Notes: a model not told the origin generated them from the sequence alone. 64,000 nt of DNA from Escherichia coli (GCF_016026235.1 NZ_CP065613.1), one strand, 5' to 3'. Counted from the stretch's first letter, positions 51,683 through 58,173 are shown. Made by a program: numbers and translations.

Positions 51683-52546
51683 GTGTGGGCGCTAACTGCG
51701 GATGCGGATTTTCTGGCGCAGCGGGGGCAAGGACAGGTTGAACAGGTCTTTGCCAGAGCGGTAAATATCGCACTCCCGGCTCGCCAGCAGTTGCTGACGC
51801 TGCTTTGTGAAGAGTACGACAATGCGCCAAACAGTTGTCGGTTGGCACTCACTCACTTTGATGATCTGTTCCGGCATGGTGATAAGGTTCAGTTTGACGA
51901 TCAAGGTATTACGGTTGGTCAACATCTTCATATAGAGATGAGTCGTTGTCGGCGTTGGCTGTCCCCAACCTTGCAAATGACCGCTGTGAATTTTCACCTT
52001 ATCGCCTGGCAACAGTGGCACGACATTATTCATCAGCACCTGGGGGAAAATGAAACCCTGTTTAATTATCGCGGCGATAATCCGTTTTATCAGGCGTTAA
52101 ATAAAGAATTACATATTAAACGACGGGCAGTTATTCAGACAGTAAACGATAAGCAAAATATCGCCTCAGCGGTCGCCAGTATGATGGGGTTAGGGATTGG
52201 CCTTACGCCATCAGCCGACGATTATTTAACAGGTCTGGCGCTTATTTTATTTATTCCCGGGCATCCGGCGGAAAAATACAAAGAGGAATTTTATCTCGGT
52301 CTGCAACGCGGCAGAAATAATACCACATTATTAAGTGCCATAACGCTGGAAGCCGCATTACAACAACGCTGCCGGGAAAATATTCATCGTTTTATTCACA
52401 ACATTATTTATGACATTCCTGGGAACGCAACTCAGGCAATAGAAAAAATTAAACATATTGGCTCCAGTTCCGGCTGCGACATGCTGTATGGCATGGCCGA
52501 TGGTTGTGCGCTGAGCCAAACCTACGGAGGGAATTATGTCAGTTAA
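51683..52546 (+). CDS. yahE: YahE (DUF2877 family), 287 aa
   Basis: Synteny; paralog class of YlbF/AllH. Confidence 0.8.
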   Translation: MWALTADADFLAQRGQGQVEQVFARAVNIALPARQQLLTLLCEEYDNAPNSCRLALTHFDDLFRHGDKVQFDDQGITVGQHLHIEMSRCRRWLSPTLQMTAVNFHLIAWQQWHDIIHQHLGENETLFNYRGDNPFYQALNKELHIKRRAVIQTVNDKQNIASAVASMMGLGIGLTPSADDYLTGLALILFIPGHPAEKYKEEFYLGLQRGRNNTTLLSAITLEAALQQRCRENIHRFIHNIIYDIPGNATQAIEKIKHIGSSSGCDMLYGMADGCALSQTYGGNYVS

Positions 52547-54083
52547 AATAGTCATTAAACCGAATACCTATTTTGATTCTGTCTCGCTGATGTCTATCTC
52601 CACGCGTGCAAATAAACTCGATGGCGTCGAGCAGGCATTTGTGGCGATGGCGACCGAAATGAACAAAGGCGTGCTGAAAAATTTAGGGCTGCTGACGCCG
52701 GAGCTTGAGCAGGCGAAAAACGGCGACCTGATGATTGTCATTAACGGCAAAGCGGGCGCGGACAACGAGCAGTTGCTGGTAGAGATTGAAGAACTGTTCA
52801 ACAGCAAAGCGCAAAGTGGCTCGCACGAGGCGCGTTACGCCACCCTTGCCAGCGCCAAAAAGCATATCCCGGAAAGTAACCTAGCGGTGATTTCGGTCAA
52901 CGGTCTGTTTGCCGCTCGCGAAGCACGTCAGGCGCTGCAAAATGACCTCAACGTGATGCTGTTTTCCGATAACGTCTCGGTTGAAGATGAACTGGCGCTC
53001 AAGCAGCTGGCCCACGAAAAAGGGCTGCTGATGATGGGGCCAGACTGCGGCACGGCGATTATTAACGGCGCGGCGCTCTGTTTTGGTAACGCCGTGCGTC
53101 GCGGCAACATCGGTATTGTTGGCGCATCCGGCACCGGCAGCCAGGAACTGAGCGTCCGTATCCATGAATTTGGCGGCGGCGTTTCACAGCTGATCGGCAC
53201 CGGCGGGCGCGACCTGAGCGAGAAAATCGGCGGCCTGATGATGCTCGATGCCATCGGCATGCTGGAAAACGATCCGCAAACTGAAATCATCGCGCTGATC
53301 TCCAAACCGCCCGCGTCTGCGGTGGCCCGTAAAGTGCTGGAACGTGCGCGCGCCTGCCGCAAGCCGGTGGTGGTCTGCTTCCTCGGTCGTGGCGAAACGC
53401 CGGTGGATGAGCAGGGGCTACAGTTTGCCCGCGGCACCAAAGAGGCGGCGCTGAAAGCGGTGATGCTCTCCGGCGTGAAACAGGAACATCTCGACCTGCA
53501 TACCCTGAACCAACCGTTGATTGCTGATGTGCGTGCGCGCCTGAAACCCCAGCAGAAATACATTCGTGGCCTGTTCTGCGGCGGCACCCTGTGCGACGAA
53601 ACCATGTTCGCGGTGATGGAAAAACAAGGTGATGTTTACAGCAACATCCAGCCCGATCCTGAATTCCGCCTGAAAGATATCAACCGCAGCATCAAACACA
53701 CCTTCCTCGACTTTGGCGATGACGACTTCACCAACGGCAAGCCGCACCCGATGATTGACCCCACCAACCGCATCAGTCGGTTGATCGAAGAAGCGCGCGA
53801 TCCAGAAGTGGCGGTGATCGTGATGGATTTTGTGCTCGGATTTGGATCGCATGAAGATCCGGTTGGTTCCACCATCGATGCGATCAAAGAAGCGAAAGCG
53901 ATCGCCGCAGCCGAAAGTCGTGAGTTGATCATTCTCGCCTATGTGCTGGGCACCGATCTTGATACGCCATCGTTAGAACAACAAAGCCAGATGCTGCTTG
54001 ATGCCGGCGTGATTCTGGCGAGCAGCAGCACCAATACCGGATTGCTGGCGCGTGAATTTATCTGCAAAGGGGAGGAAGCCTGA
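52536..54083 (+). CDS. yahF: YahF, FdrA-like acyl-CoA synthetase (NDP-forming)/succinyl-CoA-ligase-alpha-like protein, 515 aa
   Basis: CoA-binding and ligase-like Gly-rich motifs; overlaps yahE stop. Confidence 0.85.
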   Translation: MSVKIVIKPNTYFDSVSLMSISTRANKLDGVEQAFVAMATEMNKGVLKNLGLLTPELEQAKNGDLMIVINGKAGADNEQLLVEIEELFNSKAQSGSHEARYATLASAKKHIPESNLAVISVNGLFAAREARQALQNDLNVMLFSDNVSVEDELALKQLAHEKGLLMMGPDCGTAIINGAALCFGNAVRRGNIGIVGASGTGSQELSVRIHEFGGGVSQLIGTGGRDLSEKIGGLMMLDAIGMLENDPQTEIIALISKPPASAVARKVLERARACRKPVVVCFLGRGETPVDEQGLQFARGTKEAALKAVMLSGVKQEHLDLHTLNQPLIADVRARLKPQQKYIRGLFCGGTLCDETMFAVMEKQGDVYSNIQPDPEFRLKDINRSIKHTFLDFGDDDFTNGKPHPMIDPTNRISRLIEEARDPEVAVIVMDFVLGFGSHEDPVGSTIDAIKEAKAIAAAESRELIILAYVLGTDLDTPSLEQQSQMLLDAGVILASSSTNTGLLAREFICKGEEA

Positions 54084-56781: not shown

Positions 56782-56790
56782 GGACGTAAG

Positions 56791-58173
56791 ATGAAAGAAA
56801 GCAATAGCCGCCGTGAATTTCTGAGCCAGAGCGGTAAGATGGTCACCGCCGCCGCGCTGTTTGGTACGTCTGTGCCGCTCGCCCATGCGGCAGTCTCTGG
56901 CACAACCCACTGCGACGCGAATAACACCATGAAAATCACTGACCCGCATTACTATCTCGACAACGTGCTGCTGGAAACTGGATTTGACTACGAAAATGGC
57001 GTGGCGGTGCAGACCCGCACGGCGCGCCAGACCGTGGAGATTCAGGACGGCAAAATTGTCGCCCTGCGCGAGAACAAGCAGCATCCGGACGCCACGCTGC
57101 CGCACTATGACGCTGGCGGTAAGCTGATGCTGCCCACCACCCGCGACATGCATATTCATCTCGATAAAACCTTTTACGGCGGGCCGTGGCGCTCGCTTAA
57201 TCGCCCGGCAGGCACCACCATCCAGGATATGATTAAGCTCGAGCAGAAAATGCTGCCGGAGCTGCAACCCTACACCCAGGAACGGGCGGAAAAACTGATC
57301 GATCTATTGCAGTCGAAAGGCACCACCATTGCCCGCAGTCACTGCAATATCGAACCGGTTTCCGGCCTGAAAAATCTGCAAAATTTGCAGGCGGTGCTGG
57401 CGCGACGTCAGGCGGGCTTCGAGTGTGAAATTGTCGCCTTCCCGCAGCACGGTTTGCTGCTGTCGAAATCGGAACCCTTAATGCGTGAAGCAATGCAGGC
57501 GGGCGCGCATTACGTCGGCGGTCTGGACCCGACCAGTGTTGATGGCGCGATGGAAAAATCCCTCGACACCATGTTTCAGATTGCGCTGGACTACGACAAA
57601 GGCGTCGATATTCACCTGCATGAAACCACTCCGGCGGGCGTGGCGGCCATCAATTATATGGTTGAAACGGTAGAGAAAACGCCGCAGCTGAAGGGCAAGC
57701 TGACCATCAGCCACGCCTTCGCGCTGGCAACGCTCAACGAGCAGCAGGTAGATGAACTGGCGCATCGCATGGCGGCGCAACAAATTTCTATCGCCTCGAC
57801 GGTGCCGATTGGCACGCTGCATATGCCGCTCAAACAGTTGCACGACAAAGGCGTAAAAGTGATGACCGGCACCGACAGCGTTATCGACCACTGGTCGCCT
57901 TACGGCCTGGGCGACATGCTGGAAAAAGCCAATCTGTACGCGCAGCTCTATATTCGCCCTAACGAACAGAATTTGTCCCGCTCGCTGTTTTTAGCCACTG
58001 GCGATGTATTGCCGCTGAATGAAAAAGGCGAGCGCGTATGGCCAAAAGCGCAGGATGACGCCAGCTTTGTGCTGGTGGACGCCTCCTGTTCCGCCGAGGC
58101 GGTGGCGCGTATCTCGCCGAGAACGGCAACGTTCCATAAAGGGCAACTGGTGTGGGGGAGTGTGGCAGGTTGA
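56791..58173 (+). CDS. yahJ: YahJ amidohydrolase/deaminase-family protein with twin-arginine (Tat) signal, 460 aa
   Basis: SRREFLSQSGKMVTAAALFG Tat motif; metal-dependent hydrolase-like HIHLD motif. Confidence 0.85.
   Translation: MKESNSRREFLSQSGKMVTAAALFGTSVPLAHAAVSGTTHCDANNTMKITDPHYYLDNVLLETGFDYENGVAVQTRTARQTVEIQDGKIVALRENKQHPDATLPHYDAGGKLMLPTTRDMHIHLDKTFYGGPWRSLNRPAGTTIQDMIKLEQKMLPELQPYTQERAEKLIDLLQSKGTTIARSHCNIEPVSGLKNLQNLQAVLARRQAGFECEIVAFPQHGLLLSKSEPLMREAMQAGAHYVGGLDPTSVDGAMEKSLDTMFQIALDYDKGVDIHLHETTPAGVAAINYMVETVEKTPQLKGKLTISHAFALATLNEQQVDELAHRMAAQQISIASTVPIGTLHMPLKQLHDKGVKVMTGTDSVIDHWSPYGLGDMLEKANLYAQLYIRPNEQNLSRSLFLATGDVLPLNEKGERVWPKAQDDASFVLVDASCSAEAVARISPRTATFHKGQLVWGSVAG

Follow-up and report, generated by a model that had tools for sequence, protein, structure and literature searches.

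In the present study, we analyzed a window of 64,000 nucleotides of Escherichia coli DNA (GCF_016026235.1 NZ_CP065613.1; positions are counted from its first letter), with a focus on the yah cluster at 51683-58173, which comprises yahE, yahF, yahG, yahI, and yahJ. Judged by sequence comparison, YahEFG is not orthologous to the oxalurate-specific AllFGH and does not belong to the allantoin regulon; it stands within a gene set of its own, the usual parts of which are an ankyrin protein, the YahEFG triad, a carrier, usually a carbamate kinase, and a regulator of the PucR or LysR type. Regarding function, we propose, as a reading with about an even chance of being correct, that the yah module may combine a phosphorolytic carbamoyltransferase with a carbamate kinase; its substrate would be a non-oxalurate acyl-ureide, supplied through deamination of an amino-N-heterocycle, and its yield would be ATP and ammonia. 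The genes had been named and assigned to their families before, and the new elements are the separate orthologous group, the usual partners, the loss in Escherichia of a permease (hereafter X), and the accessory status of YahJ.

The YahEFG triad and its allantoin paralogues

A sequence-only reading of this DNA had described co-directional genes for an FdrA-like protein (yahF), DUF1116 (yahG), DUF2877 (yahE), a carbamate kinase (yahI), and a protein with a twin-arginine translocation (Tat) signal (yahJ), together with a cluster of repetitive extragenic palindromic (REP) elements. Open reading frame (ORF) calls on the window, profile searches, and Rfam bore these features out, including the REP or bacterial interspersed mosaic element (BIME) array; as an account of the module, the reading was incomplete in that it left out the ankyrin gene yahD, a near-constant partner. 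The locus is laid out as follows.

yahB, 49258-50190, minus strand: LysR-type regulator, ORF of 310 amino acids (aa), divergent from yahD
yahC, 50282-50803, minus strand: small DUF1097 inner-membrane protein (PF06496, 1.9e-26)
yahD, 51032-51643, plus strand: cytoplasmic ankyrin-repeat protein (Ank_2, 6e-36)
yahE, 51683-52546, plus strand: AllH-family subunit (PF11392 AllH, formerly DUF2877, 1.9e-28)
yahF, 52536-54083, plus strand: FdrA/AllF-type protein, succinyl-CoA-synthetase-alpha-like (NF004760, 493 bits, cut-off 433)
yahG, 54083-55501, plus strand: AllG-family subunit (PF06545 AllG, formerly DUF1116, 8.8e-88)
REP/BIME array (K-12 'yahH'), 55514-55786, no strand: 93-bp unit, 2.9 copies
yahI, 55831-56781, plus strand: carbamate kinase paralogue (NF009007, 649 bits, cut-off 266)
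yahJ, 56791-58173, plus strand: Amidohydro_3 protein (NF005312, 717 bits, cut-off 447), predicted signal peptide at ~56791-56889

The yahE and yahF genes overlap by 11 nt, yahF and yahG are joined by ATGA, yahI and yahJ are separated by a gap of 9 nt, and the spacer between yahG and yahI is 329 bp long. All six ORFs are intact in the window, and the gene names are identical in the RefSeq annotation of matching E. coli genomes. A scan for promoters and terminators gave no signal exceeding the shuffled expectation.

The pairwise alignments that the sequence-only reading had suggested were performed against FdrA, YlbE, YlbF, and YbcF of K-12 (locus L002), and gave 39% identity between YahF and FdrA/AllF (E = 8e-104), 45% between YahG and YlbE/AllG (E = 8e-118), 25% between YahE and YlbF/AllH (E = 4e-10), and 38% between YahI and YbcF/AllK (E = 4e-57), values that mark the four Yah proteins as clear paralogues. 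The adjacent FdrA/AllF-type, PF06545, and PF11392 genes of the yah locus score above the Pfam and NCBIfam cut-offs, with E-values that chance could not produce, and the paralogy is not new because the Pfam and RefSeq names already encode the relationship. The literature invoked for the All side was also correct: AllFGH is an oxamic transcarbamylase (OXTCase) that interconverts oxalurate plus inorganic phosphate and carbamoyl phosphate plus oxamate (PMC11326118), and AllK (ybcF) is a catabolic carbamate kinase (PMC9843812). The yah genes are not discussed in the OXTCase paper.

The distinctness of the Yah set became apparent in distant genomes. Nine contexts were found, seven of them from homologues of X and the others from the Enterococcus faecalis YahG homologue 3clq. 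They are given below with H, F, and G for AllH-, AllF-, and AllG-type proteins, Ank for the ankyrin protein, CK for carbamate kinase, and X' for a 513-aa paralogue of X (53% identical).

Brevibacillus: PucR; Ank-H-F-G-NCS1 permease-CK-GuaD-like deaminase-X
Janthinobacterium: Ank-H-F-G-X-CK-LysR
Bosea: PucR; X-Ank/TPR-H-F-G-CK; YahJ-like amidohydrolase
Pasteurella: X; Ank-H-F-G-CK-LysR-YahJ
Neobacillus: PucR; H-F-G-Ank/TPR-CK-X'-GuaD-like deaminase ... X
Paenibacillus: PucR; H-F-G-X-Ank/TPR-CK
Ignatzschineria: LysR; Ank-H-F-G-X-CK-NCS1 permease
Trichococcus: PucR; two YahJ-like amidohydrolases-Ank/TPR-H-F-G-394-aa membrane protein-triple RidA
E. faecalis: PucR; H-F-G-393-aa membrane protein

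In Brevibacillus, Janthinobacterium, Bosea, and Neobacillus, the proteins are 71-79% (YahG), 61-73% (YahF), and 47-64% (YahI) identical to those of the window, whereas the same comparison against the All paralogues of E. coli gave 43% for G, 38% for F, and 38% for I. High identity across phyla alongside low identity to the All proteins marks the Yah set as an old and distinct orthologous system. The polytopic membrane proteins of 393 and 394 aa that follow the triad in E. faecalis (L096 11198-12379) and Trichococcus (L097 11485-12669) share 68% identity; they match no Pfam family, resemble neither X nor YahC, and may be a third, unrelated candidate carrier. A placement of the E. faecalis 3clq locus within a selenium-dependent purine cluster was considered and rejected, as the genome context shows otherwise.

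The kinship with AllFGH raises the question of whether YahEFG is a second oxamate carbamoyltransferase, using oxalurate under other conditions, such as external oxalurate or parabanate entering through X, which we consider unlikely. YahEFG and AllFGH draw on the same three families, a carbamate kinase gene adjoins the triad, and the fold of X also fits carriers of organic anions. Moreover, 16% of oxamate remained in an allFGH deletion mutant of K-12 carrying only allGH (PMC11326118, Table 3); another 'F' activity therefore exists, and another protein, possibly YahF, can partly supply the function of AllF. On the other hand, the allF, allG, and allFGH deletion mutants formed no oxamate although the chromosomal yahEFG genes were intact (PMC11326118), which fits either a different substrate or a lack of expression; the substrate difference from All that the sequence-only reading had anticipated is consistent with this failure to rescue, and with the separate orthologous group. 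The identity to the All proteins, at 25-45%, is well below the 61-79% found among the cross-phylum Yah orthologues, and both sets are maintained together in E. coli. The locus is flanked by pdeL/yahB on one side and yahK on the other, with no allantoin genes or All regulators, and the linked deaminase has no place in the use of oxalurate.

YahF contains CoA_binding and Ligase_CoA domains in profile searches, and a solved relative is 3dmy (3e-83). The RefSeq name, NDP-forming acyl-CoA synthetase, would make this a cluster that handles a coenzyme A (CoA) thioester, with an unrelated carbamate kinase beside it. Such a reading, for which the two domains and the similarity to the alpha subunit of succinyl-CoA synthetase speak, appears to us highly improbable: AllF, the sole tested F member, is part of a transcarbamylase and performs no CoA chemistry (PMC11326118), YahF is invariably accompanied by AllG- and AllH-type proteins and almost invariably by a carbamate kinase, and no gene for a thioesterase, CoA-transferase, or beta subunit is linked. 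The alignments of YahF with the succinyl-CoA synthetase alpha subunit, made in a search for the phospho-histidine, cover only residues ~100-315.

The solved relative of YahG is 3clq from E. faecalis (2e-194). Residues 2-53 of YahG match the C-terminus of FdrA (E = 5e-8), such that a segment of approximately 50 aa is N-terminal in YahG and C-terminal in AllF; that it is attached to G in one system and to F in the other speaks for a physical complex of F and G. YahE, which belongs to a family of 1,978 clusters at 50% identity (E <= 1e-3), is the fastest-evolving part. In a survey of Enterobacterales, in which a YahG scan with one genome per species yielded 80 loci, its median identity was 54% versus 90% for YahG, and yahE was cleanly deleted in 20 loci of a clade formed by Enterobacter, Leclercia, Lelliottia, and Silvania. 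This loss agrees with the data on AllH, since an allH deletion mutant retained some oxamate formation and 7% of the wild-type level was reached with allFG alone (PMC11326118).

Partners of the triad and the permease slot

The gene order is constant across the 80 Enterobacterales species, namely yahB (minus strand), yahC (minus strand, not always present), yahD, yahE, yahF, yahG, X (not always present), yahI, and yahJ. The yahD gene lies directly upstream of yahE in 75 of these loci. A YahD orthologue or a longer form with ankyrin and TPR repeats was found in Brevibacillus, Janthinobacterium, Bosea, Pasteurella, Neobacillus, Paenibacillus, Ignatzschineria, and Trichococcus, and an ankyrin protein, either short and YahD-like or TPR-fused, thus accompanies the triad in eight of the nine distant clusters. 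YahD is likely to be a fourth subunit or a scaffold of the enzyme. The LysR gene yahB, the neighbor that had been proposed as a handle on induction, is found beside the cluster in each of the 72 Enterobacterales loci that reach that far (73-95% identity), and a LysR gene also adjoins the clusters of Janthinobacterium, Pasteurella, and Ignatzschineria and the IncF plasmid copy described below. A carbamate kinase gene is linked to the triad in 74 Enterobacterales loci and in seven of the nine distant clusters. YahI itself scores 347.2 bits against the arcC equivalog TIGR00746, below the cut-off of 358.25, and passes the subfamily model NF009007; by these profiles, it is a carbamate kinase homologue.

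Regarding YahJ, its N-terminus, MKESNSRREFLSQSGKMVTAAALFGTSVPLAHA-A, combines a twin-arginine motif with a hydrophobic region and an AxA site, and reads SRREFL...AHA-A in the window, which fits the S/T-R-R-x-F-L motif followed by an AxA cleavage site. The signal (RR motif, hydrophobic stretch, and AxA) is kept in all of the approximately 70 Enterobacterales orthologues examined, and is also present in the homologues of Pasteurella and Shinella, while those of Bosea and Trichococcus (30-36% identity) begin after it, with the first ~50-75 residues absent. Among Gammaproteobacteria, every YahJ encountered has kept the signal. YahJ is predicted to be exported through the Tat system, in line with the sequence-only reading. 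Signal-peptide fusion tests were reportedly conducted by Tullman-Ercek et al. in 2007. YahJ has been listed among predicted Tat substrates, and a yahJ deletion mutant of extraintestinal pathogenic E. coli (ExPEC) had a competitive index of 0.70 in mice (p = 0.02; PMC7549933). This competitive defect is the only experimental record for YahJ that was found in the literature searched, which yielded no functional study of the yah genes.

The nearest solved proteins to YahJ are of the AtzC type (6nbo, 4e-44; 2qt3, 3e-30), followed by cytosine deaminases, and its MHIH, IHLHE, ISHAF, and GTDS segments align with the HxH, HxHE, H, and D metal and catalytic motifs of 6nbo and 2qt3. These matches place YahJ in the CodA/AtzC deaminase branch of the amidohydrolases rather than among ureide-releasing enzymes, the role that had previously been assigned to it. 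Nor is it an integral member of the module, as had been supposed: the mobile E. coli copy and the clusters of Janthinobacterium, Paenibacillus, Ignatzschineria, and E. faecalis contain no yahJ, and in Brevibacillus and Neobacillus it is replaced by a cytoplasmic enzyme of the cytidine-deaminase fold, the closest relative of which is the guanine deaminase of Bacillus subtilis (1wkq, 6e-31). YahJ is an accessory and not a core part.

The REP cluster between yahG and yahI was correctly noted in the sequence-only reading, which did not recognize that most other genera have a permease in this slot. In the window, the intergenic region holds REP palindromes and a tandem 93-bp unit repeated 2.9 times (55514-55786, 95% matches), which Rfam naRNA4/REP325 matches twice at 78 bits (55569-55638 and 55662-55731). 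The array corresponds to the doubtful K-12 ORF 'yahH', which has been listed as REP-filled (PMC11551758). Among the 71 species loci with both flanks, 55 carry gene X, of 516-526 codons, between yahG and yahI (for example, L024:11537-13087, L045:11422-13002, and L070:11675-13237). The remaining 16 carry yahC between yahB and yahD; no locus has both and none has neither. The X-less loci with yahC belong to Escherichia, Kluyvera, Klebsiella, Raoultella, Pseudocitrobacter, and Citrobacter amalonaticus, and in Escherichia the REP array occupies the slot of X. Because the yahC loci form one clade in a distance tree of YahF plus YahG, the exchange was probably a single event. The YahC sequence is hydrophobic, and a stand-in for the lost permease is possible, although this is a lead only despite the perfect complementary pattern.

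X is a polytopic membrane protein with a mean column identity of 72% among 25 sequences from several phyla. It has no Pfam or NCBIfam match even at E <= 10 and no sequence match in the PDB. Its AlphaFold model (pLDDT 83) matches carriers with 7+7 helices at a template modeling (TM) score of about 0.5 and 11-17% identity, comprising SVCT1, UraA, UapA, and AZG1/2, and equally BicA and SLC26. Based on this model, X appears to be a transporter of the NCS2/SulP-type fold, in a distinct family that lacks a Pfam model.

The absence of X, with a REP array in its place, raises the possibility that the Escherichia cluster is a cryptic remnant, in which the loss of X cut off the supply of substrate and left genes that no longer serve a functioning pathway. 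The genes appear in the K-12 'y-ome' list with no known phenotype or inducer, and 142 of the 5,426 complete E. coli genomes have regained a copy with X, carried by IncF plasmids or by islands. This second, insertion sequence (IS)-flanked copy has the order LysR; Ank-H-F-G-X-CK, without yahJ, and 106 of its 152 places are on plasmids, mostly IncF; examples are L090 (IncF plasmid pMTY1886_IncF, 5107-13540) and L091. However, none of the six ORFs is disrupted in the window, and about 93% of the complete genomes likewise have them intact (yahEFG in 5,020 and yahIJ in 5,035 of the 5,426 at coverage of at least 80%), the X-less version, with proteins that are still 82-99% identical among Escherichia, Kluyvera, Klebsiella, Raoultella, and Pseudocitrobacter, has moved between genera, and the loss of yahJ caused a small fitness defect in mice (PMC7549933, as above). 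We consider a remnant unlikely, slightly more so than a second oxamate enzyme.

A putative route to ATP and ammonia

In the proposed route, YahJ would act upstream in the periplasm, deaminating an amino-N-heterocycle or acyl-guanidine (guanine-, cytosine-, or ammelide-like) with the release of ammonia. The oxo product would be imported by X, with its NCS2/SulP fold, in most genera, and by YahC or an unlinked carrier in the version of Escherichia, Kluyvera, and Klebsiella, from which X is gone. YahEFG, probably held or assisted by YahD, would cleave the terminal carbamoyl group from the non-oxalurate acyl-ureide by phosphorolysis, YahI would pass the phosphate to ADP, yielding ATP, NH3, and CO2, and the substrate would trigger induction of the operon through YahB.

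Several contexts are consistent with this route. Hallmarks of catabolism stand beside the triad, namely permease X, NCS1 permeases, PucR and LysR regulators, and deaminases of two unrelated folds, and the occupation of one slot by two such folds points to deamination of an amino-heterocycle or acyl-guanidine as the feeding step. Shinella has a Tat-YahJ homologue near X but no triad beside them, which fits the import of the YahJ product by X. Related triads adjoin biuret- and allophanate-type hydrolases in nitrifiers (PMC12625717), and this arrangement, also seen in avian pathogenic E. coli (APEC) O1, suggests that the family handles acyl-ureas in general.

The opposite, synthetic direction, in which YahI would supply the carbamoyl phosphate with which YahEFG converts an amide or heterocycle into a ureide by carbamoylation, is very improbable in our view. 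AllFGH was assayed in the carbamoylating direction (PMC11326118) and is hence reversible, and some carbamate-kinase-like enzymes are anabolic (PMC6022934). Nevertheless, permeases, deaminases, and PucR-type regulators mark catabolism, biosynthetic partner genes were seen in none of the contexts, and a periplasmic deaminase suits scavenging.

A number of points weigh against the catabolic route as drawn. No enzyme assay, induction, or growth phenotype was found for any Yah protein in the literature searched. The lack of yahE in the Enterobacter clade means that the analogy with a three-subunit enzyme is not strict. The core cluster holds no ring-opening hydrolase, and a nucleobase-like substrate would need extra unlinked steps or an unrecognized activity of the complex; either the substrate is linear, or the deaminated ring opens by itself, or the steps are encoded elsewhere. 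YahJ could also act on a product of the pathway instead of supplying it. Since seven of the nine distant contexts were reached through X, the frequency of X outside Enterobacterales is biased, and the clusters reached through YahG, those of E. faecalis and Trichococcus, have neither X nor a linked carbamate kinase. X could equally carry a small organic anion, as the modeled fold fits SulP/SLC26 as well as nucleobase carriers, and its source labels ('xanthine permease' and 'AGZA family') rest on no test. In E. coli, which is without X, the pathway may be crippled or re-purposed.

A broader reading, which we put forward as speculative and rather less probable than the route itself, is that the Yah-type set represents an unrecognized multi-phylum catabolic route for a common amino/oxo N-heterocycle, either guanine/xanthine-like or s-triazine/5-aza-pyrimidine-like, in which the ureide carbon would pass through carbamoyl phosphate to ATP without a classical ring-opening hydrolase or a transcarbamylase of the ornithine transcarbamylase (OTC) fold, and with the ankyrin protein as an obligatory subunit. 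Ankyrin proteins are rare as obligatory enzyme subunits in bacteria.

The result is unsurprising, yet it attaches a clear biochemical question to a long-standing 'y-ome' cluster, a question that concerns six to eight neighboring genes that are near-core in E. coli and conserved from Bacillales to Proteobacteria. Knowledge of the substrate would extend the three-subunit transcarbamylase family by a second activity, explain the third carbamate kinase of E. coli, and assign roles to a bacterial ankyrin protein and a transporter family without a Pfam model. It could also reveal a further route to ATP and nitrogen from ureides or nucleobase-like compounds in gut and soil bacteria. Citrobacter, Enterobacter, and Providencia, which retain the permease, are better hosts for a substrate search than K-12.

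Variation in E. coli and comparison with known systems

The window matches strain FDAARGOS_943 at 99.9-100%. A first comparison, with a best match of 96.8%, had hinted at a source other than E. coli; this was rejected in view of the FDAARGOS_943 match of both flanks and genes, the low value being explained by a rare allele and by a ranking limited by the REP elements. Its yahF-yahJ allele (52500-58173) is rare: yahI-J at an identity of at least 99% occurs only in FDAARGOS_943, and most genomes are 90-96% identical to the window in yahI-J, compared with 99.6-99.9% in the flanks. In a Pseudocitrobacter genome (L006), yahF-J and the REP array show 96-98% DNA identity and yahB-E only 67-82%, a mosaic that indicates transfer between genera. 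APEC O1 carries a third triad on the tkt1 island (L098, 5797-13993) in the order cysteine hydrolase-H-F-G-carbamate kinase-130-aa 'allophanate hydrolase-related' protein-cytosine permease-LysR. Its proteins are 42-48% identical to YahF, YahG, and YahI, and it resembles the biuH-allFGHK clusters of nitrifiers.

Three further features of the window were recorded in passing. The interval between yahJ and yahK (~58442-63600) holds an inserted ASCH-domain protein and an autoinducer-2-type sugar ATP-binding cassette (ABC) transporter composed of a binding protein, an ATPase, and two permeases; this insert does not occur in K-12 and is present at full length in 2,209 of the 5,426 E. coli genomes. At 30000-36000 lies the hyxR/hyxA/hyxB region (LuxR regulator and autotransporter) with a copy of IS2, which nine genomes match at a coverage of at least 80%. 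The 1,349-aa ORF at 43937-47986 corresponds to the autotransporter adhesin EhaA, which is intact in the window and annotated with a frameshift in strain 23CRST011.

Of the known systems, AllFGH-AllK is the closest to the Yah set: both consist of the same three protein families and a carbamate kinase, and an N-acyl-urea would be expected to undergo phosphorolysis to carbamoyl phosphate and thence yield ATP. The gene order differs, being H-F-G in Yah and F-G-H in All, as does the subunit that bears the 50-aa segment (G in Yah and F in All). Unlike AllFGH-AllK, the Yah set has an ankyrin partner, an optional deaminase predicted to be periplasmic, a permease of its own from an undescribed family, and its own regulator; it also lies outside the allantoin cluster and does not replace allFGH in vivo.

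The arginine and agmatine deiminase pathways share the four-part logic of the proposed route: a deiminase removes an imino or amino nitrogen, a transcarbamylase (OTC or PTC) uses phosphate to release carbamoyl phosphate, a carbamate kinase forms ATP, and an antiporter is the dedicated carrier. However, the Yah transcarbamylase and deaminase are unrelated to the enzymes of these pathways in fold, the Yah deaminase is optional and predicted to be periplasmic, and an amide nitrogen would be expected as the leaving group in place of the amine nitrogen of the arginine and agmatine pathways. The anaerobic urate cluster ygeW-yqeA of E. coli, another route linked to purines, also has a transcarbamylase and a paralogue of carbamate kinase as its last steps; its transcarbamylase is of the classical OTC fold, the number of enzymes is much larger, and there is no homology to YahEFG.

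Regarding YahJ, its nearest solved relatives, AtzC/TrzC and CodA, align with it in the metal and acid-base motifs, whereas YahJ forms its own NCBIfam subfamily and carries a Tat signal. The biuH/trtA-allFGHK clusters of comammox bacteria and archaeal ammonia oxidizers (PMC12625717) and the APEC O1 cluster resemble Yah in the combination of a triad, a carbamate kinase, and an upstream ammonia-releasing hydrolase, and share an NCS1 nucleobase-type permease with Yah-type systems. They differ in that the upstream hydrolase is of the isochorismatase family and is accompanied by an 'allophanate hydrolase-related' protein, with neither an ankyrin protein nor a Tat enzyme, both of which accompany the triad in the yah locus of the window.

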